From Bacillota bacterium (lineage in GTDB: Bacteria > Bacillota_I > Bacilli_A > RFN20 > CAG-288), in contig DAISOU010000001.1 in NCBI GenBank assembly GCA_036830315.1, positions 14,437 to 78,436 of the forward strand: a stretch of 64,000 nucleotides of DNA. Reading direction: 5' to 3'. The notes beneath the pieces are model-generated. The model was not told the origin of the DNA and did not search any database. It saw only the letters and a program-made list of their open reading frames with translations. Each line of letters starts with the position of its first letter. Positions within the stretch are counted from its first letter, which is position 1. Position numbers and translations under genes: made by a program. This document shows, piece by piece, positions 22,998 to 63,648 of this stretch.

Positions 22998-23000
22998 GGA

Positions 23001-23282: not shown

Positions 23283-23296
23283 TGTGACCTCCTCCT

Positions 23297-23512: not shown

Positions 23513-23931
23513 AACTTGATCTCCTCGCCTTTCTTGACGACACGGCTGGTGACGGAGAGCTTGTAGCCGGCCTGATGGAGAGCTTCCATGGCATCAGCAG
23601 CTGCGACGCCGCCGATCTCGAACATGATAGCACCCTTCTCAATGACGGCATCCCAGGTCTCGATGGAGCCCTTGCCGTTACCCATACGGACTTCAGCAGG
23701 CTTCTTGGTGATTCCTAAGTAAGGGAATACACGGATATAAAGCTTACCGGTCTTCTTGGTGAAACGTGAGAGGACTACACGGGCTGACTCGATCTGACGG
23801 TTAGAGATATAGCCCGCCTCAGTGGCGATAAGACCATATTCTCCGAAGGCGACAGTGTTGCCACGGCTAGCGGCAGCTTTGGGCCAGATTAAGTGGCTTC
23901 TGCGCCACTTGGTTCTTTTAGGCTGTAACAT
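23509..23931 (-). CDS. rplP: 50S ribosomal protein L16
   Basis: [23 protein letters not shown]. Confidence 0.97.
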
Positions 23932-23934
23932 TGG

Positions 23935-24750: not shown

Positions 24751-24754
24751 GTTT

Positions 24755-25309: not shown

Positions 25310-25321
25310 TGTTCAGTCTCC

Positions 25322-25639
25322 TTACTTCTTGGCAGCACTAGGAGCTGCAGCCTTAGGGGCAGATTCGGTAGTGGTATCAGAACCGGATCTGTGATGTGTG
25401 AAGGTACGAGTGAAGACGAATTCGCCTAACTTATGACCGACCATATCCTCGGTTACATAGACCGGCACGAAGGCGCGGCCATTGTGAACGGAGATTGTAT
25501 GCTGGATGAATTCGGGGAAGATAGTGGAGCGACGGCTCCAGGTCTTGATAACTTCTTTCTTACCTGATTCGTTCTGTTCCTGAACTCTCTTCAGGAGTTT
25601 AGGATCGCAATACGGTCCTTTTTTAAGACTTCTTGACAT
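25322..25639 (-). CDS. rpsS: 30S ribosomal protein S19
   Basis: [28 protein letters not shown]. Confidence 0.97.
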
Positions 25640-25658
25640 TTGTCATTCTCCTCCTGGT

Positions 25659-26489
25659 TTACTTGCCGTTGCGACGTCTGACAATCAGACGGTTGCTTCT
25701 GGCTTTATCGGAACGGGTCTTAACACCCATGAGTCTTCTGCCCCAAGGTGATCTAGGAGCATCGTGGCCGACAGGGCACTTACCTTCACCACCACCATGC
25801 GGATGGTCGTTAGGGTTCATGGCAGCACCACGGACAGTAGGACGGACGCCTAACCAACGAGTCTTACCGGCCTTGCCCTTGTGAACAAGGTTGAAGTCTT
25901 CATTGCCGACAGTGCCGATTGTGGCTCTGCAGGTTAAGAGGAACTTTCTGACTTCGCCGGAGGCTAATCTTAAGATGGCGTATTTGCCTTCCTTACCTAA
26001 GATCTGAGCACCAGTTCCGGCAGAACGGCAGACTTGTCCGCCCTTGCCAGGTTCTAACTCGATGTTGTGAATCATGATACCTTCAGGGATAGCGTTGATT
26101 TCCATGCAGTTGCCATTGGCGATTTCGCCGACTTTGCCATCGGTGACTTTGGCGCCAACCACCAAGCCCTTAGGGCAGATGATATAACGCTTGACACCAT
26201 ACTGGTTGGCGATTAAGGCGATACGGCAGTTTCTGTTAGGATCATATTCGATAGCCTTGACGGTCGAAACTTCTTCACCGTTTCTCTTGAAGTCGATAAT
26301 ACGGTACTTTCTCTTGTTACCACCGCCGATGTGACGGCAGGTGATGTAGCCTTGGTTATTTCTTCCGCCGGTTTTGCTCAGCGTTTTAGTCAAAGCCTTT
26401 TCAGGAGCCTTATTAGTGAGATCATTGGTAGCTAAGGTGGTGAGATGTCTCATGCCCGGAGTAAGCGGGTTATATTGTTTGATTGCCAT
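25659..26489 (-). CDS. rplB: 50S ribosomal protein L2
   Basis: GGRNNQG, EYDPNR, AMNPNDHPHGGGEG. Confidence 0.97.
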   Translation of the reverse strand: MAIKQYNPLTPGMRHLTTLATNDLTNKAPEKALTKTLSKTGGRNNQGYITCRHIGGGNKRKYRIIDFKRNGEEVSTVKAIEYDPNRNCRIALIANQYGVKRYIICPKGLVVGAKVTDGKVGEIANGNCMEINAIPEGIMIHNIELEPGKGGQVCRSAGTGAQILGKEGKYAILRLASGEVRKFLLTCRATIGTVGNEDFNLVHKGKAGKTRWLGVRPTVRGAAMNPNDHPHGGGEGKCPVGHDAPRSPWGRRLMGVKTRSDKARSNRLIVRRRNGK

Positions 26490-26514
26490 ACTTTTCTCCT
26501 ATAATGTGCTTTCT

Positions 26515-27036
26515 TTACTTCTTTTCGCTATCTTCGGCCTTATCAGCCTTGGTAGCCTTAGTCTCTTCGGAGGCGATGGCATCAGTGATCTTTCCTAAAT
26601 CGAAGGAAGAATCGAATCTGACGATGGCCTTCTTGTAAGCGGCAAGAGTTCCGACATAACGGCCGACTCTCTTCTTCTTAGGAATTACGTGAACAGTGTT
26701 TACGCTCTTGACCTTAGCAGAGAAGATAGCCTGGACGGCTCTCTTGATTTCGGATTTGGTAGCCTTGGTATCGACAGCGAAGACAAGTGCGTTCTCTTCA
26801 GCCTGAAGACGACGTGTTTCTTCGGTGGCGATCATATGCTTGATGATGGAGAAGTCCTTGATGATAGCGGCACGGTATTTGAATTCGCCGGTAGCCTTGA
26901 CACCCTTCTCAGCTAATTTCTCAGCCTTGGTGGGTTCAGCCTTAGCGGCGGTCTTCTTAGCAGCCTTCTTGGCAGGAGCTTTCTTGCTCTCAGCTTCAGA
27001 AGCGACCTGTTCGGTCTTCTTTGTTTCTTCAGCCAT
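26515..27036 (-). CDS. rplW: 50S ribosomal protein L23 with N- and C-terminal extensions
   Basis: ATKSEIKRAVQAIF..KV.SVNT, YKKAIV; long Lys/Ala/Glu-rich ends. Confidence 0.94.
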   Translation of the reverse strand: MAEETKKTEQVASEAESKKAPAKKAAKKTAAKAEPTKAEKLAEKGVKATGEFKYRAAIIKDFSIIKHMIATEETRRLQAEENALVFAVDTKATKSEIKRAVQAIFSAKVKSVNTVHVIPKKKRVGRYVGTLAAYKKAIVRFDSSFDLGKITDAIASEETKATKADKAEDSEKK

Positions 27037-27698
27037 TACTTAGCTTCCTCCTCAGTTTCGTCCTCTTCAGTCGGGATGACACCCTTAGAGAGAATGAGCT
27101 TGTCGGCATTCAAGACATCATAGACGGAGCAGTTATCAGAGCCATAGACATGGACATTCTGAAGGTTGCTGGCGGCTAAGCTGAGGTTCTCATCGGCGTT
27201 GAGGGTAATGATGAGGGTTTTCTTGTCAGCCTTGAGGGCCTTAAGAACTTCGACGAGATCCTTGGTCTTGTGACTATCGAAGGGCTTGTCATCGATGACG
27301 ATGAGGTCCTTTTCCTTAACCTTGTCAGACATGACAGAAGAGAAGGCGATAGCATATTCTTTCTTATTCATCTTAAGCTTGAAGTTCTGATTGCCATCCG
27401 GTCCATGAACGACACCGCCATGTCTCCAAAGCGGAGAATTGGTAGTACCGGCACGAGCGCGGCCAGTTCCCTTCTGAGCATAAGGTTTGCGGTTGGAACC
27501 GTGAACGTTAGCTCTGTCGAGGGTGCAGGCAGTGGCGACACGGCGATTAGCCAAGTCGACTCTGACAGCTCTCTGAACGACGACTTCGTTGATGTCAGCA
27601 TTGAAGAGATAGCCAGGAAGAACGACTTCTCCGACCTTGGCGCCTTTATAGTCGACGACCGGCCAGGTGAGGTTCTTGTTTTCTTTTTCGTTAGCCAT
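27036..27698 (-). CDS. rplD: 50S ribosomal protein L4
   Basis: RKPYAQKGTGRARAG, PLWRHGGVVHGP. Confidence 0.97.
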   Translation of the reverse strand: MANEKENKNLTWPVVDYKGAKVGEVVLPGYLFNADINEVVVQRAVRVDLANRRVATACTLDRANVHGSNRKPYAQKGTGRARAGTTNSPLWRHGGVVHGPDGNQNFKLKMNKKEYAIAFSSVMSDKVKEKDLIVIDDKPFDSHKTKDLVEVLKALKADKKTLIITLNADENLSLAASNLQNVHVYGSDNCSVYDVLNADKLILSKGVIPTEEDETEEEAK

Positions 27699-27718
27699 AG
27701 TGTTTCTCCTTACCCGCT

Positions 27719-28519
27719 TTACTTGCTGGCGTTGCTGTGAGCCTTGTTAGAGACGGCGGTACGCTTCTTACCGGAGTTCTCTTCAGCCTTAACAGCAATC
27801 TTAGACAAAGCTTCAGCGTTCTTCTTTTCGATATCGGCAATAGATTCCTTGCCATAATCGACGATGTTGCCGATATTCATCGGCTTGCCCTTCTTGACAG
27901 CGGATCTGATTTTAATGATAGAGAGATCCGGTCCAGGGACAGAGCCCTTGATGACGAGGCAGTTCTTAGAAGGATCGACAGAGACAACGGCGAGATTAAG
28001 AACAGTTCTGGTCTTAGGTCTCCACTGTCCGCCCATCTTCTTGCCAGCGTGGACACGGTTGTTGCATCTTCCGTTGGTAGCTAAGGAACCGATCTGTCTG
28101 TGATAGCCGGAACCATGACCCTTAGGTCCGATGGTGGCATGGTATCTCTTGATGACGCCAGAGAATCCATGACCCTTGCTCATACCGGTGACATCGATGA
28201 TTTCACCAGCAGAGAAGATAGAACAATCAACGGCAGAACCTACTTCATGATTTCCATAGATTTCGTCGCCGTCTAATTCGCGGATAACATACTTGGGAGC
28301 AGTATTGGCTTTCTTGACGATGCCCTGCTCGCACTTGTTAGCGCGGCTGACCTTCTTGTCTTCATAACCAATCTGAAGGGCTTCATAACCGTCCTTAGCC
28401 TTGGTCTTCTTCTGAAGTACAACGTTGGGTAAGACCTCAACGACTGTTACCGGGTAGCTGATGCCATCTTCGTTGAAGACGGTGGTCATTCCGATTTTTC
28501 TTCCGATTATTGATTTCAT
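27719..28519 (-). CDS. rplC: 50S ribosomal protein L3 (C-terminally extended)
   Basis: GRKIGMT, DVTGMSKGHGFSG, IKGSVPG. Confidence 0.97.
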   Translation of the reverse strand: MKSIIGRKIGMTTVFNEDGISYPVTVVEVLPNVVLQKKTKAKDGYEALQIGYEDKKVSRANKCEQGIVKKANTAPKYVIRELDGDEIYGNHEVGSAVDCSIFSAGEIIDVTGMSKGHGFSGVIKRYHATIGPKGHGSGYHRQIGSLATNGRCNNRVHAGKKMGGQWRPKTRTVLNLAVVSVDPSKNCLVIKGSVPGPDLSIIKIRSAVKKGKPMNIGNIVDYGKESIADIEKKNAEALSKIAVKAEENSGKKRTAVSNKAHSNASK

Positions 28520-50295: not shown

Positions 50296-53205
50296 TTACA
50301 GATCGACAGAGGTAAACCCACTTACAGCCACTACTTCCTTAATTTTATTACCGCCATAATGAATAGTGACAGTCTTATTGTTCTTACCAGCATTCCAAAG
50401 AAGAACAACTTCTTTAAAACCATTATCGTAGACACTTCCTGCAACATTTGAGGTTATCTCAGCGTAAGAAGCTGAAGAATGATTCTTCAGCCCGTCCATC
50501 GCCTCCACCATCCAATAGGCACCGGACAATTCATTTGGATAATCATCACCAAGTATCTTATTATCGTCAAAGTTATAGATGGCTGTTGAAGAAGAACAGA
50601 GAGACTGGATGGACCACATATTGGAAAACCAGGTTTTAGGTGCTCCGCCTCTTTCTTTCAAAAAGGTATTATAGATCTTTGTCAGTTTCTTCTGCTCATC
50701 GTTTCCCAAAGCATAGGATGATAAGTATTCACCGGTTGGAAGCCAATGAATTCCATAGATGAATTCCGGACTTGGTCCAAACCAAGTCTGGTATTCGTTC
50801 TTGCCACCCCAGACCATGCCTAGAGCATGGACATTGGCACTTGCCGGTATGCCGCTGTCATACCAGTTAGTCTCATCATAATCAAACCAGTACTGTTTAA
50901 CAGAATATAGTTCAGTAGTGTATCCGTAGATGCTGGTATCTACTAATTCTGTATCGCCTGTTGCCAATCCAAACAGATAACCTGCCACCCAGGAATTAAG
51001 GGCTTCACCGCAGGATTCCTGATTATTGCCATCTCCGGCATCTCCGAATCCATCCGACCAACTATGGCCGGAATATGTGTCAAAAGTTCGTAGATATGGA
51101 TACATCTCATCATCTTCGTGATCATAGCTTTCATAGTCTTTCAGTAAGAGAGAAACCATACCTTTGTAGCTAGTCAGGAATGCAGAATCAAACATAGACA
51201 AAACTGCGCTGGCAAAAACCAGGTATCCGTGGGTGAAATGATGATCGCTTAATCTAGTTCCAGTCGAGAAGGCATCATCGCTATAGTACATGCTTCCCCA
51301 AGTATCGTTATAGTAAAGATAACGGGAATCATTTTCACCACTATAGGTGAACCAGTCATCTAAGATAAGACGGATCTTCTCAATAAAGTTGGCCTTGAGT
51401 CTTTCTTCATTCAACTGACTGGCGATAATAAGGCCTTGACTTAACGGATATAGAGCTTTGCTGTTCCAATATGGAGCCGTATTATCGAGATAGTCTTTAG
51501 AATCGACTTTATCGTCATAGACACCATCTGAGACCAAGTTATCATTGAGGCGGTTAAGATAAGAAACCATCTTGATCTTATCAAAGGTAGAAGAAGTCGG
51601 AGTCGTGAAGGAAGGGAGGACGCCTGCAAAACTCATGCTGGTATCAAAGCTATCGTCTGCCAGCATTTTAATCGTTCCTCTCATTGCTTCAACCGAATAT
51701 GGGGAAGGAGTCGAAGCTGTTTTCTTCCACTGATGAGGAAGAAGACCGAAAACGGAAGTCGCATCTGTTTTATCAATATGCTGGACATTGACAGAATAAT
51801 GAGTGTTGACTAAGCTCTTTTTATGGTCGACTGTGAAAGAGGAATTGGACCTGCAAGCCATTGAATAAGCATGCTGATGATAGAAGCTGACCATTTCCTT
51901 CGAGAAGGACTCCCCTAAAGGTGTAACGGAAAAATAATTTCCTTTTGTCGGAGCAATGGTCAGACGATCCAGGAAAGAACTGTCAGGATGAGAATTATGT
52001 TTGGGTGTAAAGACTGTGTTTTCAGGTGCATTGATCAGGAAAAACACATCCTTATATATAGGAGCGCCAAAGGAGACACCATTGCTGACACCATTGTCCT
52101 GATAACTATAACCGCGATGTCTTGATACCAAGGAGACGATTATTCCCTCAGAGGTTATAGGAGTCAGTCCATCTATCTGAGTGCCGTCAAGATTAAAGTA
52201 GCGATAACCGCCAGTCACGCCATCGATTGACAGATCGATATCAGTAGGAGCAGTTCCTTTGGTTTCAAAGAAGACATAAGGAGAACCCTGAGCATAGGTA
52301 ACAACCAAATCATCAATGTTATCGGCCTGATTCTTCAAAGCAACCCTCAAGCCGTTTTCGGAATATGACTGAACTTCAATTTTTGTATTACCGCTTTTAG
52401 CCGGCTTGATCTTCAGATCTCGAAAAGTGGGAGTGAAGTTTGAGATGGTCTTACTAGTATAGGAACCGTTATCAGCCATATCCTTATTAGTACGGTAAAC
52501 CTGGTCACCTCCGACTCCGACATCGGAGATTTCAACTCCGCCATCGATAAAACTGGAACGATACTGATTTATATATAGACCAGTATTAGATGGATTGGTA
52601 AAAAGTCCGCTATACCAAGAATTGGTAGGTATTGGGTTCTCTAATAAATCAGCCCGGATATTGTTAGGGTTGGCAGGGTTGGGGGCCTTAGTCGTACCGG
52701 TTGCATAAGAGCCATCTCCAATATTTACCTGAGTATTGGAAGAATGAGCCTTATTGTTAACTGGCGCCGTATAGGTTCCATTATCACTTACAGTAATAGT
52801 TCTTTGATTAGTTTCAGTCTTAGAATTGTAATCAAGAGTATAAGTCAAAACATAGGACCCGACTGTTCCATAATCCACATAACCGCTGCAACTTATATTA
52901 TCGGTTATATCTATACCAGTTGAAGAAGTAGCTGATACGCCTTCGAAAGCATCAAAATAGTGACCGGTCTTGATTGTAATATCATCGATGCCTTTAATCG
53001 AAGTGGGATCACCTGGTTCAACTGATGATGATGAATTCTGAGATTCTGAATCCTCACCTGTCGATATAGAAGAATCTACATTATTTGAATTTTCACAACT
53101 AGAGGGTGAACTATCAGTCCCTGAGCTTATGATACTTGAATTATTTCCGCAGCTGCAAAGTAAAAACACAGTAAGTAAGCTGATTGCTTTTCGAAGTTTT
53201 TTCAT
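50296..53205 (-). CDS. GH81 endo-beta-1,3-glucanase lipoprotein with DUF5011-type Ig domain
   Basis: Start MKKLRK after AGGAG; lipobox LCSC; Ser linker; PIPTNSWYS, SDHHFTHGY, RTFDTYSGHSW, NNQESCGEALN, GIHWLP motifs. Confidence 0.88.
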   Translation of the reverse strand: MKKLRKAISLLTVFLLCSCGNNSSIISSGTDSSPSSCENSNNVDSSISTGEDSESQNSSSSVEPGDPTSIKGIDDITIKTGHYFDAFEGVSATSSTGIDITDNISCSGYVDYGTVGSYVLTYTLDYNSKTETNQRTITVSDNGTYTAPVNNKAHSSNTQVNIGDGSYATGTTKAPNPANPNNIRADLLENPIPTNSWYSGLFTNPSNTGLYINQYRSSFIDGGVEISDVGVGGDQVYRTNKDMADNGSYTSKTISNFTPTFRDLKIKPAKSGNTKIEVQSYSENGLRVALKNQADNIDDLVVTYAQGSPYVFFETKGTAPTDIDLSIDGVTGGYRYFNLDGTQIDGLTPITSEGIIVSLVSRHRGYSYQDNGVSNGVSFGAPIYKDVFFLINAPENTVFTPKHNSHPDSSFLDRLTIAPTKGNYFSVTPLGESFSKEMVSFYHQHAYSMACRSNSSFTVDHKKSLVNTHYSVNVQHIDKTDATSVFGLLPHQWKKTASTPSPYSVEAMRGTIKMLADDSFDTSMSFAGVLPSFTTPTSSTFDKIKMVSYLNRLNDNLVSDGVYDDKVDSKDYLDNTAPYWNSKALYPLSQGLIIASQLNEERLKANFIEKIRLILDDWFTYSGENDSRYLYYNDTWGSMYYSDDAFSTGTRLSDHHFTHGYLVFASAVLSMFDSAFLTSYKGMVSLLLKDYESYDHEDDEMYPYLRTFDTYSGHSWSDGFGDAGDGNNQESCGEALNSWVAGYLFGLATGDTELVDTSIYGYTTELYSVKQYWFDYDETNWYDSGIPASANVHALGMVWGGKNEYQTWFGPSPEFIYGIHWLPTGEYLSSYALGNDEQKKLTKIYNTFLKERGGAPKTWFSNMWSIQSLCSSSTAIYNFDDNKILGDDYPNELSGAYWMVEAMDGLKNHSSASYAEITSNVAGSVYDNGFKEVVLLWNAGKNNKTVTIHYGGNKIKEVVAVSGFTSVDL

Positions 53206-53280
53206 TTGATTACTCCTAATGATGAATATTGAACGACTATAGGGCAAACTATTATAGACCATTGAATACCTATAGACTTA

Positions 53281-53329: not shown

Positions 53330-55510
53330 TTATTCAGCCAGAACACAGGACTGTGAGACGACTTCAAAGTAAGCGTCGGTGGTATCGGCCTTACCGGTGA
53401 AAACCTCACAAAGCTTGCAAGTCACATCATTCAAGGTGACATTGACAGTGAAAGTGTGATCGGCAGCAGCGACAAATTCAGCGCTGGGGAAACCTAATCC
53501 CATGACGATTTCAGTCGCACTGACGACAGTTTCTCCAACTAAGCCAGTTGAAGTCAAGGTAGCTCCGGTCGAAGTGACGATTTTTGCCGTGGTGTTATCA
53601 ACACAGCCAGCAGTCAGAGTATAGCCTTCAGCCCAAGTGACATGAGCCTTGAGCCAGGCTCCGCCGACACCCGAAGATAGTTTTACAGCAAAGCGAGTGG
53701 AGACATCTTCATCAGGGCCAGCAGCTTTGACAGTGATTTCAACTGTGGCCTTATATTCCTTAGAATCGATTGTCACAGAGGCAGTTATTATAGCTGTTCC
53801 TTCCTTGATACCAGTGACTACGCCAGTAGCAGAATCGACAGTTGCAATAGCTTCATCAGACGAAAGGAAGGCAATCGTTCCGGCACCGTATTTGATTTCA
53901 GCTGTCAAAGTGATGGTTTCACCGACTTTGACGGACTTCTTAGTAGAAGTGAAGTTCACTTCCGGACTTAAGACATCAAAGACATCTTCATCATGTTTTA
54001 AGACAGGCATGGTATTATCGGCAAAAGTGAAAACCGTATCCGATAAGGAAGCAAAGCTATCCTTGGTGCAGGAAGCAAAATCAACATTGTTTAAATTGGA
54101 GACGTGAGTATCAGCAATGGTTCCGCCGTTAGGATTGAAGGGCTTGAAGTTTTCATTAGCGGTATCGTGTGCAATATTGGTATAGCCGTTCTGAATCTTA
54201 AATTCACCAGCATCTGCAAATGAATAAGCAAAGAAGGGGAAACACATGGCATCGGGAGCCATCAAATTGGTGACGATGTTATTGATCTTGGCAGCACCGG
54301 AGATGCAGCTGGCAATAACTCCGTTTCTTCCCCAAGTCCAATCTGAAGCTGTACGAGTGTGAGCGGCTTCAAAAATACAATTTTCAATGCTTCCGCCATT
54401 GACTTCCTTAGCTAACAGACCAGAGAAACCAGCGGCATCGATGGCACCGATAAGATGAATATTTCTCATTACGCCGTTGAACAGCCAGAAGATACCAGTG
54501 GCTTTTTCTTTTTCGTTTTCGGAATCATTCCTGACATTGAAATTCTTGACCGTATAACCACAGCCATCTAAAGTGCCGGAGAAGACATTTCCTTCATTAG
54601 AGTTATTTTTAGCGCGTCCGTTTAAAACAGCACCATTCAAATCGATATTCTTTCCTAAAGCATACTTGCCATTGATTGTTCCTTTAGTCTCAACCATAGC
54701 CAAAAACTCGGAAGCAGTATTGATCTTAGTATAGCTATCATAATTAGCGGCAACAGTAAACTCCATTGAAGCGGGATATTCTTTGCCCTCATAAGTGGCA
54801 GTACAGGTGATAGTGGAAGATCCATAGTTTGTCGGTGTGACCCACTGGGAGTTTTCTTTAAATCCCGCAGCTACGGCTGAGCCGATAGCCACTGCATTTG
54901 AACTAGTCGCCCAAGCATAAGTAATAGAGGCATCAGCTTTGGCATTAACTAAAGTAGCAGTGACTAAGTTAGCGCCGCCCCCTTCAGTCAAATTGTTCTT
55001 ATCACCCTCTCTTAAAGCCAAAGTCAGACTGATCACAGCCTTTGCTTCTACCTTGACTGTCAAAGTACCAAACTTACTGGTATCAAAAACAGAAGTGGCT
55101 TTGATGACAGCAGTTCCATCACCGATACCAGTGACCACGCCATTATTATCAACAGTGGCTACTGTTTCCGTATCACTGGACCAAGTCACCTTCTGACTGG
55201 CCTCATCGACAACGACGACAGAAGCAGTAAAGGTAGCAGTGTCTCCGACTTCAATAGTATCCTTACCGGTAACAGTTACCGAAGTAACACTGGGATTCTT
55301 AATAGCTGTAGAACTAGAAGAATCGGGAGCAGGAGTAGATGATTCAATAGATGAAGCCGTAGTCTTATCAGATAAAACAGAACTTTGAGATGAAGAGGCT
55401 GCAGAAGAAGTAGGTGAAGAGCTTAATTTCTCCGATAAGGATGAAATATCTCCGCAACTCGCCAAGGACAATAAGCCTGAAGCTAAAACTAAAAGGATTT
55501 TCTTTTTCAT
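53330..55510 (-). CDS. Lipoprotein with Big_2 Ig domains and a central GLUG-like beta-helix domain
   Basis: Lipobox LASC; Big_2 VTWSSDTETVATVDNNGVVTG and FLSSDEAIATVDSATGVVTG; YTKINTASEF...YALGKNIDL...FSGTLDGCGYTV. Confidence 0.72.
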   Translation of the reverse strand: MKKKILLVLASGLLSLASCGDISSLSEKLSSSPTSSAASSSQSSVLSDKTTASSIESSTPAPDSSSSTAIKNPSVTSVTVTGKDTIEVGDTATFTASVVVVDEASQKVTWSSDTETVATVDNNGVVTGIGDGTAVIKATSVFDTSKFGTLTVKVEAKAVISLTLALREGDKNNLTEGGGANLVTATLVNAKADASITYAWATSSNAVAIGSAVAAGFKENSQWVTPTNYGSSTITCTATYEGKEYPASMEFTVAANYDSYTKINTASEFLAMVETKGTINGKYALGKNIDLNGAVLNGRAKNNSNEGNVFSGTLDGCGYTVKNFNVRNDSENEKEKATGIFWLFNGVMRNIHLIGAIDAAGFSGLLAKEVNGGSIENCIFEAAHTRTASDWTWGRNGVIASCISGAAKINNIVTNLMAPDAMCFPFFAYSFADAGEFKIQNGYTNIAHDTANENFKPFNPNGGTIADTHVSNLNNVDFASCTKDSFASLSDTVFTFADNTMPVLKHDEDVFDVLSPEVNFTSTKKSVKVGETITLTAEIKYGAGTIAFLSSDEAIATVDSATGVVTGIKEGTAIITASVTIDSKEYKATVEITVKAAGPDEDVSTRFAVKLSSGVGGAWLKAHVTWAEGYTLTAGCVDNTTAKIVTSTGATLTSTGLVGETVVSATEIVMGLGFPSAEFVAAADHTFTVNVTLNDVTCKLCEVFTGKADTTDAYFEVVSQSCVLAE

Positions 55511-55565: not shown

Positions 55566-55615
55566 ATTTTATAAAGGAAAAATAATAAAGTCAACGCAAT
55601 AAAAAAGGGCTTTCA
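55566..55615 (-). promoter_or_regulatory. Promoter of 53330..55510 with upstream operator
   Basis: TTGACT (55594-55589), 17 bp, TAAAAT (55571-55566); TGAAAGCCCTT at 55615-55605. Confidence 0.75.
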
Positions 55616-55619
55616 ATTA

Positions 55620-57005
55620 GTGGCAATTATTTGATTTCATTCTTGAAACAGCAAAAGCAAAGAAATGCAAAATAATAAGTTTAGATGATTATATTTATTT
55701 TACATATTGTAATTAATTCAAAAATACAAAAATCATAATCAAATGGCTTTTTTCATAAAATAGAAGCAATTATCAAAAAACATTTGGGTCCTGTTATTAA
55801 GAATGGTTTTTTCCGTTTTCCCTTCATTATAATTTTTGAATAAACGAACATACTTTAAGTTAAACAGCAGAGGTGCAAAAAAATAATGAATTGCTTATCA
55901 AAAGCCGATGTAATTTAAATAAATTTTCTTTTAATAATCATTTTATTTCCTGTAATTATCGTGTAAACCAACTTTATAATTTAAATTAAATGTTTATCAT
56001 TAAATAATTAAAAAAATTTATTTGTATGATTTCCAAATAACCCGAAATTAAATAAGTCTCAAGTGAAAAGCAAAAACAATTTTACTATAGAAAAATTAAA
56101 AAAGCTTAGTTATGTATTCAGTTTTTTTGCCTTATAACACTATTATTTATAATTTTTTTATTAATCGTGTTTTTTTAGGAAACTAGCTTTCATAAATATA
56201 TAATTTGTAACATGTTTTTAAGGATTTTTTCTATTTTTTTATTTCTGCTTCTGATCAAAAATTGACATATAAAATGGTATTATTTTCTTATAAAATTGTA
56301 GCCCTTTCTTGGTCTTGAGCAAAAGGTGTACATTATTTAAACTCAAACTTCAAAAATCTTACCAATCAAGTAAAAAAACATGTCTTCGGCGAAAAAGAAA
56401 AATTCAAATCTTTTTTGTCTTTTGTTCGATAATGTCTATTTTTTGAGATTTACATTCACTTTTAGATCGATTGATTGCAATCTGAAGATAAAGTTTTTTG
56501 GAAAATTTATAAATATAACAAACCAATGATTTTTCATTATGATCAAACCATTTTTGGCGTATGTTCTCCATTCCGTTTCTTTGGTTTCAAAATCAATCGC
56601 AAAGGCTCAACAGCGTTTACCAGCCGTTTATTCGATAATGTGACTTTTGTTAATATACTATTTCATAAAACAATTTCTGTTCAACAAACACACCAGAAAA
56701 GGCTTTCTTTATTAATAGTATTGAAGTATACGATCGTTGTTATTAAGTAATTCTCAATCAAAAAAGCAGTCATCAATTTACTTTTGAAACACATGAATTA
56801 TTATTGAAAAATAAGAAGGCTTGTTCTCTTGATTTCCTTTCCTTTTCAAATAATCTTTTACGACTTGCATTAATTAAAAGCCACAAAAAAAGAGCATGTC
56901 CATGCCCTTTTTCTTCGTCTGCTGAAGATAGTCAGAAAATATAGAAACCACTATTGAAGCTTACAATTCTAAACTTCAGTAAGATAGAAACACGCAAAAA
57001 AAGTT
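55620..57005. other. Very AT-rich, apparently non-coding spacer
   Basis: Two hand-counted 60-nt lines had 11 and 6 G+C; no credible ORF. Confidence 0.7.
56885..56912 (-). terminator. Terminator after the GH16 gene
   Basis: Minus strand AAAAAGGGCAT-ggac-ATGCTCTTTTTTT. Confidence 0.65.
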
Positions 57006-57009
57006 AATC

Positions 57010-57987
57010 CTAACTAATCCAATCATAGATTCTGACGTAATCAATCAACATTTCAGCACTAGTGAAAGAATCAGGAGGCATAACTCCATTATCAAAATTT
57101 CCGCCGACTGCCATATTCAGAAGGATGTGGAAAGGCTGATTAAAAGGAGAAGAATCATTTGTGGAATAAGAATCAGTATGCCAGGTAGAAGATGAAACTG
57201 TCATGAATTGGTTATCATCACAATACCAGGTAATGCCTTGTTCATTCCAAATGATGCCATAATTATGGTATTCGCCGATGGTAGTGTAATCTGTAAGTTT
57301 AAACACATTGGTACCTGCTTCATAAGCGTGTTGATTGTTGTCATTTGAATAATGAAGAGCTCCGGAAGTCTGATTAGTCAGCCTTCCTTTTGCTTCCATG
57401 ATATCGATTTCACCAGAATGAGGCCATCCCTGATTCTCATAGTTCTTTTCAGGCAACATCCAGAAAGCCGGCCATAATCCCTTGACTGCGGGAAGAGATA
57501 TACGCGCTTCAATCTTCCCATAAGTAGCTTTTACCTTCCCTTTAGTCCTCAGTCTTGAGGAAGTATAGGAATAACCGCCTACTGACTCTTTCTTAGCCGT
57601 AATAACTAATTTTCCGTCTCTGACTGAAGAATTGTTCCCCTGATAATATTCAGCCTCATTATTTCCCCAGCCCGAGATTCCGTAGGCATCACCGTTACCT
57701 GTCATGTTTTCCCAGATATTGGTATTCAGACTAGCTGAAGAAAATTCATCTGACCAGGATAGTTTCCATCCGGTCTCTTCACCTACTGAAGAAGATGAAG
57801 ATGATGTTGATGAACTTGCTTCAGAGCTGATTTCTGATGAAGAATCCTCCCCTATGCTGGATAGAGAACTATTTGAAGTAGACTCAGTGGAACTTTCAGA
57901 ACTCGAATTGGAATTACCTGAAAAGAGCATCTCACAGGAGTTAAGACTCATAAGGCTGATTAAGATTAAGGAACTGATTCTTTTCAT
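57010..57987 (-). CDS. GH16 beta-1,3-glucanase (laminarinase-type) lipoprotein
   Basis: Lipobox LNSC; Ser linker; WSDEF, GWGNNEAEYY, YTSSRL, WPAFWMLP, WPHSGEIDIME catalytic motif. Confidence 0.92.
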   Translation of the reverse strand: MKRISSLILISLMSLNSCEMLFSGNSNSSSESSTESTSNSSLSSIGEDSSSEISSEASSSTSSSSSSVGEETGWKLSWSDEFSSASLNTNIWENMTGNGDAYGISGWGNNEAEYYQGNNSSVRDGKLVITAKKESVGGYSYTSSRLRTKGKVKATYGKIEARISLPAVKGLWPAFWMLPEKNYENQGWPHSGEIDIMEAKGRLTNQTSGALHYSNDNNQHAYEAGTNVFKLTDYTTIGEYHNYGIIWNEQGITWYCDDNQFMTVSSSTWHTDSYSTNDSSPFNQPFHILLNMAVGGNFDNGVMPPDSFTSAEMLIDYVRIYDWIS

Positions 57988-58007
57988 GGTATATATTATC
58001 CTTTAAA

Positions 58008-58040
58008 CAAATAAGGCTGATTATTCATCAGCCTTATTTG
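58008..58040 (-). terminator. Intergenic hairpin between lipoprotein and GH16 genes
   Basis: CAAATAAGGCTGAT-N5-ATCAGCCTTATTTG. Confidence 0.7.
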
Positions 58041-58082
58041 AGCATTCTAACGGCAAAAGACAAACAAAACTAATAGATGCTT

Positions 58083-59516
58083 TTAAGCCAGGGCCTTAAT
58101 AGTAGGCATCTGATTTTCTTTGATATCAAAGATATGAGAATCCAAATCAGCATAAGAAGCGACAGTGGCATTAGTCCAATTGATTCCAGTGTGATAAGTG
58201 GTCTGATCTTCGACAGGGCTTCCCCATTCCCAGACAGATCCACCGACGACTGTAGAATCAGTATAGAAGTTGACAACTGAGAAAGCCTGAGTACTTTGTG
58301 CATTTGTTCCCTGAGAACCGCCAGCTGGATAAGCGACATCGGCAAAGATTGTCTTAAAGCCGGCTTCCGGAGTCTTGTTGACATTGACGACAATGTTGCG
58401 ATAAGTGCTGCCTTCCTTGAAGACACCAACTAAAGCGGAGTTGAAGGGGAACCACTTGTTGGCATCAATCAAAGACGAATTATCAAAAGTATGGGTTACC
58501 GAAACAAAGATGTTCTCTAAACTTCCAGAACAGGCCGCACAGATAGAAGAAGTGCCCCAGCCAGATCCCTTTTCTCCGATAGTAACGCCGTCAAATCCGA
58601 TGTTGGCGATGATTGATCCTGATTCAGTGGCGGAGAAGAAGCCGCCATTTGAATACTTGTCGGCAGTATTGCCAGTGACGGTGTAATTCTTAATTGAATA
58701 ACCCTGTCCGTCTAAAACACCGGCAAAGGAACTGTTGGTATAGGGAATGGTGTAATTTCCTAAATCAATATCAGAGGTAAGATAATAATTTCCGCTGATA
58801 GTAGCTCCTGTCAAGAGTTTGGTCTTAACATCGTCAGCTGTCGATAATGCGGTCCATCCAGTAGTGTGATCAGCCTTGACGAAGACAGGAATCGTCTTCT
58901 TGAAAGTATCCGAACCAACCTGGAAAGAAACCTGTATGGTATCGGAGCCAAAATTGTTGCAGCTATAGTTGACTGCGTTTGAAGTAGTGGAGCCAGTGAA
59001 GGTTCCCTTAGAATAAAGTGACTTCCAGTTATAAGTGATGGCGCCATCATAATCGGTGACAGTCGCAGTTAAGGCAATAGTATCCTTCTGGGTAGCCAAA
59101 GTCTTATCCGCTTCAATGGTGATGACAGGATTGACGACCGATATGACGTTGATATCTAAACTTGCAGAAACTGTGGCATCAGCTTTGGCAGTAGCCGTAA
59201 ACTTAGTTGTTCCGACTTTTTTTCCTGTAATCAAAACGGAACCATCGTTATTGATTGAACAAGTGGCGATAGAATCATCAGCCATCGCAATATCAAACCC
59301 GGCTTTAGTCGTATCACGGGTAAGAGTGACAGTTAAGTTAGTGGTTTTCCCAACCATGACAGTGCCTTCGCCAGTCAATTTGATCTTAATTTCCTGAGTA
59401 GTAGCTGAAGTTGAAGTACCAGATAAGTCGCCGCTATTGACAGAAGTACCGTTTTCACCACAACCAGTAACTAAGATTAATGAGGCAATAGCTAAGAATA
59501 AACCTGATTTTTTCAT
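58083..59516 (-). CDS. Lipoprotein with Ig-like domains and a GLUG-like beta-helix domain (paralogue-like to 53330..55510)
   Basis: Lipobox VTGC; Big_2 DDSIATCSINNDGSVLITG; WTALSTADD...YYLTSDIDL...FAGVLDGQGYSI. Confidence 0.72.
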   Translation of the reverse strand: MKKSGLFLAIASLILVTGCGENGTSVNSGDLSGTSTSATTQEIKIKLTGEGTVMVGKTTNLTVTLTRDTTKAGFDIAMADDSIATCSINNDGSVLITGKKVGTTKFTATAKADATVSASLDINVISVVNPVITIEADKTLATQKDTIALTATVTDYDGAITYNWKSLYSKGTFTGSTTSNAVNYSCNNFGSDTIQVSFQVGSDTFKKTIPVFVKADHTTGWTALSTADDVKTKLLTGATISGNYYLTSDIDLGNYTIPYTNSSFAGVLDGQGYSIKNYTVTGNTADKYSNGGFFSATESGSIIANIGFDGVTIGEKGSGWGTSSICAACSGSLENIFVSVTHTFDNSSLIDANKWFPFNSALVGVFKEGSTYRNIVVNVNKTPEAGFKTIFADVAYPAGGSQGTNAQSTQAFSVVNFYTDSTVVGGSVWEWGSPVEDQTTYHTGINWTNATVASYADLDSHIFDIKENQMPTIKALA

Positions 59517-59580
59517 TATTTACGTCCTCCCATAATAATGATGAAGAATAGAATCTGATGATTTCTATTTCATTGACCTG

Positions 59581-59631
59581 ATTATATTTTGGAACTTGGA
59601 AAAAAGTCCCAATATTTCGTAAGGGCTTTCA
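59581..59631 (-). promoter_or_regulatory. Promoter of 58083..59516 with the same upstream operator
   Basis: TATAAT (59586-59581); weak -35 GGGACT (59610-59605, 18-bp spacer); TGAAAGCCCTT at 59631-59621. Confidence 0.7.
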
Positions 59632-59650: not shown

Positions 59651-61492
59651 TCAACTTCTAGTCAAGACGAAATTGTCGAGCTGATAAACGACGCCTTTAT
59701 TGTTTATTCTAAGAATGTTCATCCCCTGATTGAAGGCAATTTCTCCAAAAGCGACGTCTTTGAACTGATCGACAGCGTTGGAAGTCAGTATCTCCACTCC
59801 TTCTTCTTTAATGGTCACATTGTTGAGAGTCATATCAAAGAGATTTACTGAATTTGTCTTAACCAGATTCAGATAGGATAAGGCCATGGTCAGTTTCAAA
59901 CTATAGCTTTCTTTCAGATACACGTATAAGAGAATTGAGGAATAGGAACTGGAATTGGAGATGAATAGACTGTTTGAGGCTTTACGGCTATAGTTTCTGA
60001 CCTCGTCTCCTAAAAGGATCAAGTCTTCTCCTTCCATCTTCAAAGTGGTGGTGGCTTCATCGATTCTGGTATTGAACAAAGTAAGACAATCCAAATCATA
60101 ATTGCCAGTGACAGAGATTACCTTCAAAGAGTGCTTTCCTTCCTGGATGACTATATTATTGACTAAGACATCGAAGAAATTGTAATAATCTGTCGGAACC
60201 AGGTTATAAGCTAAAGGAATTAAATCTTCGTCGTCCAGAGTAAATCTGATGACGTGAGAAATATCAAGCTCTTCTCCGACATAGGATAACCTGATAGCCA
60301 AACGTGAATAACAGGCTTCCAGAGTATGGAGAGTGAAGTCGACATAGGTACTTGGCCCGTTAAAGCCGACAATATCATGATTCGGGCCTGAGATCAAACA
60401 GCCGTTGACTAAGATAGCATCCTCGGCTTCAAACCTCTGATTGGAGATAACCGATGAGAGGTTGATGTCGCTGTTGAGAGTAATAGAATCCAAATAGAAG
60501 AATCCGCCCAGGTTTTTGAGAGTAATAGTGTTGCTTCCCTTGATCAAATTAATATACCCAAAGTCAAGACTGCTATAAGAATCCGTCATCGAGGAAAAAG
60601 GCTGATTGTTTATCTTCACATCATTGACAGTGATTTCAACACCCGGCGTATTACTGGATTCGCTCTTTTTCCGGGCTTGGATAGCTAATGAGCTTGTCGT
60701 TTTCTCATCGCTTGAGAAATAAAAGGAAATAGAATCATCCGGGCTTGTAAAGAAGACAGAGTATTTTGTCGAGGCCTTGTCATCAGTGACAATGACAGCA
60801 CCTTGGATATTCTGCTGTCTTTCAGCTTCAAAGACTTGTTTTTTCTCTCGGCTCTTAAAATCACCGCTTTGATAGCCGATCGATGTTTCCTTGGTTGTTT
60901 TTTCCTTTGAGGAAACCAATAAAAGATAATCGATAGAATAAGTGTTAGATAAGGCTGTTATCTTGATTTCGTTTTTTCCGGCACTGAGATTGACCAAAGC
61001 CAGAGTATTCTCCATGAAATCATATTCATCAAAGGAGGGATTGATTTTCAAAGGAAGTTTCACTTCGTTTGAATTCACGTTCAAAGTCATCAAGTTTGAA
61101 GCGGCAATCGCCTTTCCAGTCTGAGAAACATATGATGTCGCAACCACTAGTTTCGCTTCCATAGAATAGGAAACTGACACTTCCAAAGTCAGGGAGGAAC
61201 CGGTAAATAATTCGGTGACCACCTCTTGGTTAGAAGCGTGTATATTGTCCTTCACTTCCGCCGAGCCTGAGAGTTTTGCCGATTCGGCCTCATAAATCTG
61301 ACCCCCAGAGTCTTCTTTGAAAATCTTGGTGTCGCTGCGGTCAATGTATTCGTGATAGGAATAAGTCGGATAATCAGCCAGTGACATCTTCTGCATTATT
61401 GAAACACCGACAATAGAAAGGCAGATTGCAAAAGCGATGATGGTTCCGATGATAGAGAAGATAATATAAAACCGCGATGATTTCTTTTTCAT
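59651..61492 (-). CDS. Membrane-anchored protein with four CBM6/CBM35-like modules
   Basis: N-terminal TM; repeats start YEAESAKL, FEAERQQ, FEAEDAIL, MEGEDLIL and end ..IDYL / ..LDSI / ..LDCL / ..LDNF; no catalytic domain seen. Confidence 0.7.
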   Translation of the reverse strand: MKKKSSRFYIIFSIIGTIIAFAICLSIVGVSIMQKMSLADYPTYSYHEYIDRSDTKIFKEDSGGQIYEAESAKLSGSAEVKDNIHASNQEVVTELFTGSSLTLEVSVSYSMEAKLVVATSYVSQTGKAIAASNLMTLNVNSNEVKLPLKINPSFDEYDFMENTLALVNLSAGKNEIKITALSNTYSIDYLLLVSSKEKTTKETSIGYQSGDFKSREKKQVFEAERQQNIQGAVIVTDDKASTKYSVFFTSPDDSISFYFSSDEKTTSSLAIQARKKSESSNTPGVEITVNDVKINNQPFSSMTDSYSSLDFGYINLIKGSNTITLKNLGGFFYLDSITLNSDINLSSVISNQRFEAEDAILVNGCLISGPNHDIVGFNGPSTYVDFTLHTLEACYSRLAIRLSYVGEELDISHVIRFTLDDEDLIPLAYNLVPTDYYNFFDVLVNNIVIQEGKHSLKVISVTGNYDLDCLTLFNTRIDEATTTLKMEGEDLILLGDEVRNYSRKASNSLFISNSSSYSSILLYVYLKESYSLKLTMALSYLNLVKTNSVNLFDMTLNNVTIKEEGVEILTSNAVDQFKDVAFGEIAFNQGMNILRINNKGVVYQLDNFVLTRS

Positions 61493-62805
61493 TTGTTTTT
61501 GCCTCTGCTAATTGGAATAACACAGTCAACCTGAAACATTTTATCCGCTAGGAAAAGATATATGGTCCCCTTGTATTTATCAACGATCTTCCCCATAGAC
61601 CTAGTTCCAAAGCCATGGTTTTCCTTATCGGCCTTGTCAGTCTTGAGAAAATCGGAGGAATTGCTGTTTTCTTCCGCAAAGAAATTTTCACAGTGAATGA
61701 AGACCTTATTGTCGATGGCCTTGATTGTCAAAGATATAAAACGTTTAGTCGGATCAGTTATCTTGCTTTCATAATCAAGGGCATTGTCAAGCATATTGCC
61801 AAAGAGAGAATAGATATCCTGAGTATCCATAAAGTCGATGGCTTTTCCATCTGTCATACAGGTCAGGACAATCTTGTTTTTCTGACAGCGAAGAGATACG
61901 GAGGAGAGAATGACATCCAGAACTTCGTTTCCAGTTTGAACAATGGACTGATAGATATCGGCTGATTCCTCTAACTGATTGACGATTTTTTCATTCACAA
62001 TGCCAGTTGTCTTGATATCTTCAATCTGATGTTTCAAATCATGAACTTTGATGTTGATCATTTCCATGTTCTCTTTCTGAATCTCATAGTGCTTTCGGTC
62101 TTCTACCCAGATTTGTTTGATAACGGCTATTTCATCTTCTGACTCACCCTGATTCAATAAGGAATAGCAAATCAGGAACATCATCAGTCCATAGAAGACC
62201 TCGCAGATTATAAGCATCATGATATAGGAGGTTGTCGTCGCCTGGATATAAATTTCTATGGCTTCCATCGCTAGTGAGACAACTGAGAAGAAGATACTGA
62301 AGAATAGCAGGTCTTTTAGACCAATCTTATCGATTTTTTCCTGATATCGGGAAATAAAGAATCTCTGAGTGAAGGCTATGACAATGCAAAAGGACAACAA
62401 TTCGATCAGCAGATTGTAATATTCGTTAATGGTTGAAAAAGCATTGTTCAGGGAAATGACGATCAAAGATCCTATCTGTCTGGCCAGGAAGTGAGTCAAA
62501 CCCAAAGCACTTTCCGAAAAACAGGCATAGGCAATACTTGTCTCGTATAAGCTGACTATGGCAGCTGAATCCAGAATATAGAAAAGAAAGACAGTAACTA
62601 AAAGCCAATATGATTGCTGGTTTTCAGGAGCAAAAGAATAAAAATAAGGTAAGAGGAGAACGATTAAAAGACTCAAGGCAAAAAACAAAAAAGCCTTTAA
62701 GAGAAACAGTTTCCTTTTCTTTAATTCCTTTGCAGACAAAAAGAAGGAAATTAAAAACTCCACAAAGAACAATGATGAGTAGGCGACTAAATATAGATAG
62801 TTCAA
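61489..62805 (-). CDS. AgrC-like membrane sensor histidine kinase (GHKL domain)
   Basis: About seven TM segments; KVHDLKHQI H-box, LFGNMLDNA N-box, HGFGTRSM. Confidence 0.88.
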   Translation of the reverse strand: MNYLYLVAYSSLFFVEFLISFFLSAKELKKRKLFLLKAFLFFALSLLIVLLLPYFYSFAPENQQSYWLLVTVFLFYILDSAAIVSLYETSIAYACFSESALGLTHFLARQIGSLIVISLNNAFSTINEYYNLLIELLSFCIVIAFTQRFFISRYQEKIDKIGLKDLLFFSIFFSVVSLAMEAIEIYIQATTTSYIMMLIICEVFYGLMMFLICYSLLNQGESEDEIAVIKQIWVEDRKHYEIQKENMEMINIKVHDLKHQIEDIKTTGIVNEKIVNQLEESADIYQSIVQTGNEVLDVILSSVSLRCQKNKIVLTCMTDGKAIDFMDTQDIYSLFGNMLDNALDYESKITDPTKRFISLTIKAIDNKVFIHCENFFAEENSNSSDFLKTDKADKENHGFGTRSMGKIVDKYKGTIYLFLADKMFQVDCVIPISRGKNK

Positions 62806-63515
62806 GACAGAGACACTTTCTTTTCGTTCAGCTTGTTCAGGACATCTTTCTTTTTGTTACGGGAAAAAGAAATTGGAATCTTCCTGTTAGTCAGATAAGC
62901 TTTGTCTTTGTCAATCGATGTCACTTTCTGAATATTGATAATAACGGAATTGCTGCAACGGGAAAACATATCATCGGGAAGGGACGCTTTCGCGTTAGCC
63001 AAAGTTCCCCAGACTTCTACTTCTTCCTCATTATCGAGATAATAAATCAATAAGTGGTCTTTGATTTCGACATAGAGAATTGAAGACAAGGAAACTTTTT
63101 TAGCTCCGCCGGTGGTCTTGAGAATGATTTCCTGATCTTTGTTTGATCCGACTATCTTCATTGTTTTGATCATCAAAGATTCAAAACGTGCATATTGAAT
63201 AGGTTTCAAAACATAGTCGATAGCATCGACTTGGTAGCCTTGAATCGCATACTGAACCAAGTTGGTAATAAAGATCAAAGGGACATTGCGGTCTTTTTCA
63301 CGTAATTTTTTAGCTACTTCCATACCATTCATATGAGGCATCTCAATATCCATGAAAATCAAATCAAAGTTCTTGCTTTCGTCTAAAAAAGAAAGACCTT
63401 CCTTATAGTGGGTGATGCTGAAAAGAAAATTATTATCCTCTCCAAATTTTAAAAGAAAGCCCTTAAGCGTTTCAAAAGCTTCGTCCTCGTCTTCGACAAT
63501 TGCAGTTTTAATCAT
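62802..63515 (-). CDS. LytTR-family (AgrA-like) response regulator
   Basis: IVEDE, FMDIEM, IDYVLKP receiver; ILYVE...H, FSRCSNSVIIN LytTR domain. Confidence 0.92.
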   Translation of the reverse strand: MIKTAIVEDEDEAFETLKGFLLKFGEDNNFLFSITHYKEGLSFLDESKNFDLIFMDIEMPHMNGMEVAKKLREKDRNVPLIFITNLVQYAIQGYQVDAIDYVLKPIQYARFESLMIKTMKIVGSNKDQEIILKTTGGAKKVSLSSILYVEIKDHLLIYYLDNEEEVEVWGTLANAKASLPDDMFSRCSNSVIINIQKVTSIDKDKAYLTNRKIPISFSRNKKKDVLNKLNEKKVSLS

Positions 63516-63556: not shown

Positions 63557-63565
63557 ATTATAACA
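63557..63565 (-). promoter_or_regulatory. Extended -10 promoter of the LytTR-kinase-CBM operon
   Basis: TGtTATAAT on the minus strand about 40 nt upstream of the start codon. Confidence 0.55.
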
Positions 63566-63648
63566 CAAATAGTTTTCCTGATTTTTTGCAAACTGATCAA
63601 TATTGGAAAAGAACAAGCATAGTGTTAATGAAGTACACTGCTGTTTCC

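Follow-up and report, generated by a model that had tools for sequence, protein, structure and literature searches.

Organization of the locus

The stretch of DNA analysed here (the window, 64 kb from an uncultured gut bacterium of the Bacillota) carries two operons for β-glucanases, and in front of each of them lies an identical box of 11 nucleotides (nt), AAGGGCTTTCA on the plus strand and TGAAAGCCCTT on the minus strand, which, judged from sequence comparison, is a real and conserved regulatory site. The genes concerned are all read from the minus strand, in the following order: a response regulator, a histidine kinase, a protein of 613 amino acids (aa), site B with one copy of the box, a 477-aa lipoprotein, a GH16 β-glucanase, a terminator, a gap of 1.4 kb free of open reading frames (ORFs), site A with the other copy, a 726-aa lipoprotein and a GH81 endo-β-1,3-glucanase. 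The operon of the GH81 enzyme is called module A and that of the GH16 enzyme module B (table 1).

On the minus strand both boxes are followed, after 10 nt, by the hexamer at the -35 position (TTGACT, 55594-55589, at site A; GGGACT, 59610-59605, at site B) and then, after spacers of 17 and 18 nt, by the -10 hexamers TAAAAT (55571-55566) and TATAAT (59586-59581). An initial annotation of this DNA had located both 11-mers, and their distance of 10 nt from the named hexamers, correctly. Its description of the spacing as identical holds for these hexamers within the window, whereas the distance from the box to the -10 differs by 1 nt (45 nt at A vs. 46 nt at B), and 11 nt instead of 10 separate the box from TTGACT in L001, the locus with the only close orthologue of the 726-aa protein. 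The -10 hexamers were rightly judged good, and TTGACT is near consensus; GGGACT, however, is not kept as a -35 in orthologous promoters.

The exact 11-mer occurs in the window only at sites A and B, and three further copies have one mismatch: those at 20126 and 36464 lie within ORFs, that at 63454 within the response-regulator gene. The motif is not abundant at random positions; such abundance would have spoken against it. The last near-copy (AGAAAGCCCTT, 63454-63464, minus strand; 6053-6063 in L001) belongs to the coding sequence (residues ..TLKGFLL..), is conserved as such, and is no regulatory site.

Table 1. Features of the two β-glucanase modules and of the adjacent sensor operon (positions in the window)
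Feature	Position	Strand	Basis or remark
Site A 11-mer	55605..55615	-	Exact match; upstream of lipoprotein-GH81 operon
Site A extended cre-like 14-mer TGAAAGCCCTTTTT	55615-55602	-	11-mer plus extension
Module A core promoter	55566..55594	-	TTGACT, 17 nt, TAAAAT; 10/12 consensus positions (promoter scan)
Module A gene 1, 726-aa Big_2 lipoprotein	53330..55510	-	Paralogue of 477-aa protein, 24% identity
Module A gene 2, GH81 endo-β-1,3-glucanase	50296..53262	-	Pfam Glyco_hydro81C 3.8e-39
Site B 11-mer TGAAAGCCCTT	59621..59631	-	Exact match; upstream of lipoprotein-GH16 operon
17-nt conserved core TGAAAGCCCTTACGAAA	59615..59631	-	cre-like 14-mer 59631-59618 overlapping DR2
Proximal repeat DR2 AAGCCCTTACGAAA	59628..59615	-	Site B repeat-unit position weight matrix and alignment
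Distal repeat DR1 TACCAAATAAGAAA	59636..59649	-	Starts 21 bp upstream of DR2
Module B core promoter	59581..59610	-	GGGACT (59610-59605), 18-nt spacer, TATAAT (59586-59581)
Predicted stem-loop, 5' end of module B mRNA	59541..59573	-	Each sequence folded alone
Module B gene 1, 477-aa lipoprotein with Ig-like domains	58083..59516	-	Orthologues P0001-P0012
Module B gene 2, GH16 β-glucanase lipoprotein	57010..57987	-	Pfam Glyco_hydro_16 2.2e-20
Terminator after GH16 gene	56914-56885	-	Terminator scan
Membrane-anchored 613-aa protein, four CBM35-like modules	59651..61492	-	Last gene of regulator operon
Histidine kinase, GHKL HATPase_c_5, AgrC/ComD-like	61489..62805	-	Pfam 3.8e-21; six predicted membrane segments (hydropathy scan)
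Response regulator, receiver and LytTR domains	62802..63515	-	Pfam Response_reg 2.4e-19, LytTR 9.2e-15

A Conserved Core in Front of the GH16 Operon

The promoter region of module B was compared by anchored alignment of 13 non-redundant lineages having orthologues of the 477-aa protein (54-91% identity), which derive from metagenome-assembled genomes (MAGs) of uncultured Bacilli/Erysipelotrichaceae-like organisms and from metagenomes of rumen and other animal-associated samples. A core of 17 nt, TGWAAGCMCTTACGAAA, is kept in 13/13 of these lineages at 100-120 nt upstream of the ATG, within intergenic DNA that cannot otherwise be aligned. Its consensus, TGaAAGCCCTTACGAAA, is variable only at position 3, which is A or, in three lineages, T (TGTAAG: L074, L078, and L081), and at position 8, which is C or, in L081 alone, A (AAGCACTT). 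The box at the GH16 module is thus strictly conserved in orthologous promoters, the check that had been proposed for it. L065 still has the core, even though an unrelated gene with a terminator of its own lies upstream, which indicates that the element belongs to the downstream promoter.

A scan of GTDB genomes for the 17-mer returned 88 matches, nearly all of them apparently due to chance and in unrelated taxa; those within the clade are four known B sites and one extra copy, L148. The latter (positions 2066-2082 of contig 88, in the MAG that also holds L004) is a second exact 17-mer, TGAAAGCCCTTACGAAA, situated between the terminator of a formate/nitrite-transporter gene and a GNAT acetyltransferase gene, with a TACAAT at a distance of 66 nt and without the distal repeat described below. 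It may be an extra target or a sign that the 17-mer is a self-sufficient site.

Could the box instead be part of an RNA element, namely the intrinsic terminator of the regulator operon (AAAGCCC..GGGaCTTT plus a T-run at site B) or some structured RNA? The core does pair with AGGGCT(T), followed by a T-run, in L003, L004, L064, and L077, and a bulged version, AAAGCCC-N12-GGGACTTTTTT, is found in the window. Yet the 3' arm is not kept in L001, L002, L065, L066, L071, L074, L078, L080, and L081, while the 5' arm is invariant; L065 has the separate upstream terminator just mentioned; site A possesses no complementary arm; the terminator scan found none at either site; and no Rfam family is matched. 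We consider an RNA origin of the box very improbable. Its terminator version is rejected, since the 3' arm exists in a subset of lineages only and no terminator was called.

A distinct RNA feature lies further downstream. In 10/10 leaders of GH16 operons a hairpin is predicted a few bases after the -10 (among them L002, L003, L065, L071, L074, L078, L080, and L081), with stem sequences that differ between lineages and a loop that often reads AUCnUCnGAU; its z-score is -2.4 or lower in 6/10 lineages and -1.2 for the window's own sequence. RNAalifold gave no consensus for the 5' untranslated regions of module B, the hairpins not being alignable. Their position directly after the -10 in all ten leaders supports the assignment of the module B promoter, and they could be 5'-terminal stabilisers or regulatory RNA elements.

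A Tandem Repeat of LytTR Type at Site B

The core ends with ACGAAA, and this block has a counterpart 21 bp upstream, A[A/C]G[A/G]AA, which follows TTACC; the period of the block is 21-22 bp across lineages (22 bp in L066). These sequences define a repeat unit of approximately [T/G]ACC[G/A]A..ACGAAA, present at site B as a distal (DR1) and a proximal (DR2) direct repeat. DR1 begins one base past the TGA that terminates the 613-aa gene, and its TTACC..A.G.AAA is kept in 11/13 lineages, the repeat being degenerate in L065 and L081; from the end of DR2 the distance is 4 nt to the -35 position and 28 nt to the -10. The 11-mer of site B consequently consists of three spacer bases plus the 5' part of DR2. 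By a position weight matrix (PWM) of the repeat unit, DR1/DR2 is the sole tandem pair in the 64 kb, and no further LytTR target was found in the window besides site B; single units numbered 17 against about 10 expected, which is at chance level.

The promoter that follows has a poor -35 position, with GAGACT, AGAACA, AGGGCT, ATGCTT, and others in orthologues, so that the hexamer differs in nearly every lineage and is good in none; a -10 of TAnAAT type, instead, is found in all of them, 45-47 nt downstream of the first T of the box. A LytTR site as published has two repeats of 9-11 nt with 11-13 nt between them (PMC4847170) and immediately precedes a suboptimal promoter, the defect being, for AgrA, the -35/-10 spacing (PMC4227749). 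Two direct repeats with the published spacing are present at site B and not at site A, and site B also sits just upstream of a suboptimal promoter of the activator-dependent kind. A LytTR regulator is encoded close by, and its putative further targets carry such repeats as well, with some circularity due to the training set of the matrix. Binding by a LytTR protein had initially been called atypical for want of direct repeats, a claim that the tandem repeat of 21-bp period at site B contradicts; that a site upstream of the -35 would usually imply activation fits site B, with its promoter devoid of a conserved -35.

Pairs of the repeat with a 21-bp period, the proximal unit ending 28-29 nt before the -10, were recognized by eye beside orthologous two-component systems, in front of divergent GH3 genes (L003, L004, and L071), Big_2 lipoprotein genes (L002 and L074), and the gene for an 804-aa surface protein (L001). 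The pairs of L001-L004 and L071 rank among those to which the PWM gives top scores, a partly circular result because most top-scoring pairs were in its training set; the pair of L074 is not recovered, its distal unit scoring -11.4.

The Box in Front of the GH81 Operon

At site A the situation is different. After AAGCCCTT this site has TTTTAT in place of ACGAAA; nothing similar to DR1 is found 21 bp upstream; its score as a repeat unit is -18.9 bits; and what the two promoters share at the box is the 11-mer only. The near-consensus arrangement TTGACT-17-TAAAAT, moreover, does not look like that of an activator-dependent promoter; the box lies, as at site B, at approximately -57 to -44. Given the absence of a repeat pair, the near-consensus -35 and the unshared ACGAAA, direct LytTR co-regulation of both modules is not indicated. 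The idea of a shared operator for both modules, as initially advanced, is plausible in itself.

Comparative evidence for site A comes from a single relative. Among 5.8 billion proteins, the 726-aa protein has one close orthologue (L001, 80% identity), the next having 43%. L001 keeps the box (16640-16650) together with both promoter hexamers. Homologous DNA in the window and L001 extends up to 55619, 4 nt beyond the box; farther upstream the sequences are unrelated, L001 having a methyltransferase gene there. L069, the next nearest GH81 locus (49% identity), is organized differently and lacks the box.

Is then the copy at site A a non-functional relic, or a mere coincidence, only site B being regulatory and the box providing no co-regulation? 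Dinucleotide shuffles of the two upstream regions contain some common 11-mer in about 3% of cases, and a second, AT-rich 11-mer, AAATATAATCA, is indeed also common to both regions. A relic would be compatible, too, with the boxless GH81 locus of L069, with the 1-nt change in the gap from box to -35 between window and L001, and with the fact that other blocks of at least 20 nt are also kept in L001, the one close relative in which site A was checked. The shared 11-mer, however, is an in-register sub-word of the core kept in 13/13 lineages, and an in-register match to the core at the same distance from the -10 (within 1 nt) has an analytic estimate of ~1e-5, from which we conclude that the sharing is not due to chance. 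Neutral retention of an ancestral 11-mer is implausible in view of the 24% identity between the first genes of the modules. Additional points against a relic are the homology with L001 that starts just upstream of the box and the rank of site A as top cre-like 14-mer of the window (see below). We therefore judge this explanation quite unlikely.

The ORF-free gap upstream of site A (55616-57009) contains on the plus strand a block of about 130 nt (56292-56423) that is 78-85% identical to L001. Within it lie the window's third-best cre-like 14-mer, TTGTAGCCCTTTCT (56296-56309, plus strand), and a repeat-like pair with a 21-bp period, TACCAATCAAGTAA / TGTCTTCGGCGAAA (56360-56394). The block might be a relic promoter, or produce a small transcript, under the same controls. 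The corresponding gap of L001 holds a 1025-aa gene and the methyltransferase gene; the window has no remnant of either, and tblastn with the L001 methyltransferase gave no match in the 1.4-kb gap.

Resemblance of the Shared Box to cre Operators

The 11-mer forms the left 11 nt of a 14-nt box, TGWAAGC(C/A)CTTwnn, resembling the catabolite-responsive element (cre), the consensus of which is quoted as TGWAANCGNTNWCA (PMC5263246). The 14-mer of site B, TGAAAGCCCTTACG, matches it at 12/14 positions and that of site A, TGAAAGCCCTTTTT, at 11/14. The left arm varies only at the W position of cre (A/T), and the arms of site B, GWAAG/CTTAC, are palindromic, perfectly so in L074, L078, and L081 (GTAAG/CTTAC). 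The likeness to cre with C instead of G at the centre, pointed out in the initial annotation, is therefore upheld, and it extends to boxes at other β-glucan genes of the clade.

Such related boxes, of the form TGnnAGCsCTT, are found downstream of the -10 at GH3 and lipoprotein promoters. In particular, promoters that diverge from the regulator gene have a conserved box, TGGTAGCGCTT(A/T)(A/T)(A/T), immediately after their -10, namely those of GH3 genes in L003 (898), L004 (5846), and L071 (5814) and that of a Big_2 lipoprotein gene in L002 (4168). The window's own species has the TGGTAGCGCTT box upstream of its GH3 gene, in L171 (~3095-3110), about 1 kb beyond the right end of the window, where it is inverted, an orientation that points to a protein operator and not to a promoter or RNA element. 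Further variants are TGTAAGCGCTTTCT, which follows the -10 of the lipoprotein gene in L074, and TGAAAGCCTTTACA, at the 804-aa gene of L001. The pattern TGnnAGCnCTT has 25 matches in ~200 kb of clade DNA, almost always intergenic. When a PWM was built from boxes other than A and B, site A ranked first and site B second among all 14-mers of the window, with 0.4 such scores expected per shuffled window; this ranking is suggestive of membership in a cre-like family, and partly circular.

These observations bear upon the alternative that the 11-mer is the LytTR regulator's own high-affinity element, by which both modules would be directly activated, B via the tandem site and A via a single proximal half-site. 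In its favour, the box lies 45-46 nt from the -10 in both A and B, the position of a promoter-proximal LytTR repeat, and no other part of site B varies so little; the two-component system is encoded in the neighbouring operon, the two operons act on one and the same substrate, and the ACC[G/A]A block at the 5' end of DR1 is loosely like AGCCC. The 17-mer standing alone in L148 and the degenerate DR1 of L065 and L081 also agree with such a half-site. Against it, the ACGAAA and ACC[G/A]A of all other clade units are absent from site A, which scores so low as a repeat unit and has no DR1, and the near-consensus -35/-10 of promoter A is unlike that of activator-dependent promoters. Moreover, the first two bases of the box, T1 and G2, fall outside the repeat unit and are invariant at A and B only, the equivalent bases before DR1 and other repeats being variable, while AAGCCC in its 5' half differs from the ACC[G/A]A of all other repeat units. 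The invariant TG and AAGCCC are thus features that the repeat unit leaves unexplained. In our estimate, a LytTR half-site at A is the main rival explanation, if a rather unlikely one, and more probable than a relic. The shared part of the two sites looks more like a catabolite-type (cre-like) operator than like LytTR repeats.

A scan of the window with the canonical cre gave matches that apparently all fall within ORFs. An exact match, TGAAATCGATATCA (minus strand, 57399-57412), lies within the GH16 coding sequence, and one-mismatch matches number 14 in the window against 4.7 expected, including those at 53728 and 54358 in the 726-aa gene and at 60625 in the 613-aa gene.

The Adjacent Sensor Operon

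The LytTR domain of the response regulator aligns to AgrA (3bs1, 4e-7), and the full-length protein aligns to ComE (4cbv). The third gene of the operon encodes a 613-aa protein with one N-terminal transmembrane segment and four internal repeats of ~130 aa, each starting with E[A/G]E. Its AlphaFold (AF2) model has a pLDDT of 77 and is matched by Foldseek to CBM35 2w1w (TMt 0.79, root-mean-square deviation 3.1) and to the multi-CBM35 structure 5x7o (E = 5.7e-16); the sequence has no significant Pfam match, CBM_35 reaching E = 0.0065 and 17.2 bits vs. a cut-off of 28. Five homologues exist among 5.8 billion proteins, all in the clade, and the family always follows genes for a LytTR regulator and an AgrC-like kinase. 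On the strength of its predicted fold and conserved synteny, the 613-aa protein is a candidate glycan co-sensor of a three-component system.

The promoter of the regulator operon (63557-63567, minus strand) has an extended -10, TGTGTTATAAT, which is kept in L001, and no repeat pair stands in front of it; the sensor operon thus looks constitutive rather than autoregulated. Directly upstream of it, the species of the window has a GNAT gene and not a GH3 gene. Elsewhere in the window, the region 12001-28000 differs in composition (G+C of 0.47-0.49 vs. ~0.40 in the rest) and carries dense short ORFs on the minus strand; possibly this is a gene cluster of foreign origin or of distinct function.

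Comparison with Known Regulatory Systems

Site B is similar to the operators of known LytTR regulators (AgrA at agr P2/P3, ComE, PlnC/D, VirR, YpdB, and BtsR/YehT) in that a pair of imperfect direct repeats, 21-22 bp in period, directly precedes a promoter without a good -35, and likewise in that it lies beside the genes of a receiver-LytTR regulator and an AgrC-like (HATPase_c_5) kinase. Its repeat sequence, in contrast, is new; the proximal repeat is overlaid by a cre-like box, and site A has this box without repeats. The usual targets of LytTR regulators are quorum-sensing peptides, bacteriocins, toxins, and pyruvate-related genes, whereas the targets here are β-glucanases and the regulator is co-transcribed with a membrane protein having four CBM35-like modules, no peptide pheromone gene being seen.

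With the cre sites of CcpA and the operators of LacI proteins the box has in common an apparent 14-nt pseudo-palindrome, found at several sugar-utilization promoters of the clade in either orientation and at varied positions with respect to the -10; examples of cre sites upstream of the promoter are those of ackA and pta in Bacillus subtilis. It departs from cre in its CC centre (CA in L081) and in a right arm that ends with CG (B) or TT (A), not CA. Its strict invariance across lineages is unusual for the site of a global regulator, and from a position upstream of the -35 CcpA usually activates, which would be odd for a glucanase operon unless an activator is displaced.

A further parallel concerns the putative sensor. 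The RsgI anti-sigma factors that work with SigI in Clostridium thermocellum are transmembrane sensors of polysaccharides bearing carbohydrate-binding modules (CBMs). The 613-aa protein is alike in combining extracellular CBMs with a single-pass membrane protein encoded together with a regulator of glycoside hydrolases; its partner is instead a two-component system and it has no anti-sigma domain; RsgI offers a functional analogue for the way in which it might sense glucan. LytTR regulators are listed in polysaccharide loci of Gram-positive bacteria (PMC5320581), and our literature search found no described system of AgrC/AgrA type with a CBM35-like membrane protein and glucanase genes. Overall, both components, LytTR tandem repeats and a cre/LacI-like operator, belong to familiar types, and the box as a sequence feature is an ordinary transcription-factor site; what is new is the repeat consensus, the core conserved across an uncultured clade, and the association of an AgrC/AgrA-type system with a CBM35-like protein and glucanase genes.

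A Model of Composite Control

From the sequences, their conservation, and their geometry we infer which regulators may bind and with what sign they would act. The reading that we favour, tentatively and with slightly less than even confidence, is that LytTR activator repeats and a cre-like operator are combined at site B, and that site A has only the operator in common with it. The adjacent LytTR gene, the geometry of the repeats, and the alignment of the regulator to AgrA and ComE lead us to read site B as the activator site of this regulator. In its phosphorylated form, the regulator would bind DR1/DR2 as a dimer, recruit RNA polymerase, and turn on the lipoprotein-GH16 operon; the signal would probably come from the AgrC-like kinase and the 4xCBM35-like membrane protein in the presence of β-glucan. 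A second regulator on the cre-like box (CcpA, another LacI-like protein, or some other protein) would tie both glucanase modules and the other β-glucan genes of the clade to one signal. At site B this second protein, on a box extending over the spacer and the 5' half of DR2, would compete with the LytTR activator (anti-activation), and the demand of two proteins on one site would explain why 17 bp are nearly frozen across lineages. At site A, where the promoter is near consensus and independent of an activator, the second protein would bind in the UP-element zone. The modules would thus share the second control and not LytTR control.

This composite reading needs to be qualified on several counts, all of which weigh against it. 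The cre-like family is partly circular, several of its boxes having been found with a pattern derived from A and B. The centre of sites A and B is never CG (CC, or CA in L081), the most conserved feature of canonical cre, while the related boxes at GH3 and lipoprotein promoters do have a central CG; the right half-site of A is degenerate, with TTT in place of WCA. No LacI/CcpA-like gene was found by tblastn in the window or in 14 clade loci (~200 kb), using a B. subtilis CcpA sequence as query. A location upstream of the -35 is unusual for repression, and site A can be compared with one close orthologue only (80% protein identity). Finally, the LytTR regulator alone could explain the invariant 17-mer, and the DR1-less copy of L148 suggests that the 17-mer may be self-sufficient.

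In broader terms, one may envisage that a system of AgrC/AgrA type (an HPK10 kinase with a LytTR regulator), originally devoted to peptide quorum sensing, now senses polysaccharides by means of the 4xCBM35-like protein, with its proximal LytTR repeat fused to a CC-centred cre-like box; 17 conserved bp would then integrate glucan induction with a second, shared signal, to which the GH81 operon would be linked through the box alone. Taken as a whole, this scenario is possible and rather doubtful.

The regulation of polysaccharide utilization in Gram-positive gut bacteria is poorly mapped, and the clade considered here, known from Bacilli/Erysipelotrichaceae-like MAGs of the rumen and gut, has no cultured model. 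The present analysis provides for it concrete and testable operators: a LytTR repeat consensus with fixed geometry, a 17-bp core, and a candidate operator shared by GH16 and GH81 β-1,3-glucanase operons. If true, the model would illustrate how one site can accommodate both induction and a second control, and how a system of AgrC/AgrA type, known mainly from peptide signalling, could be adapted to the sensing of dietary or fungal glucans.

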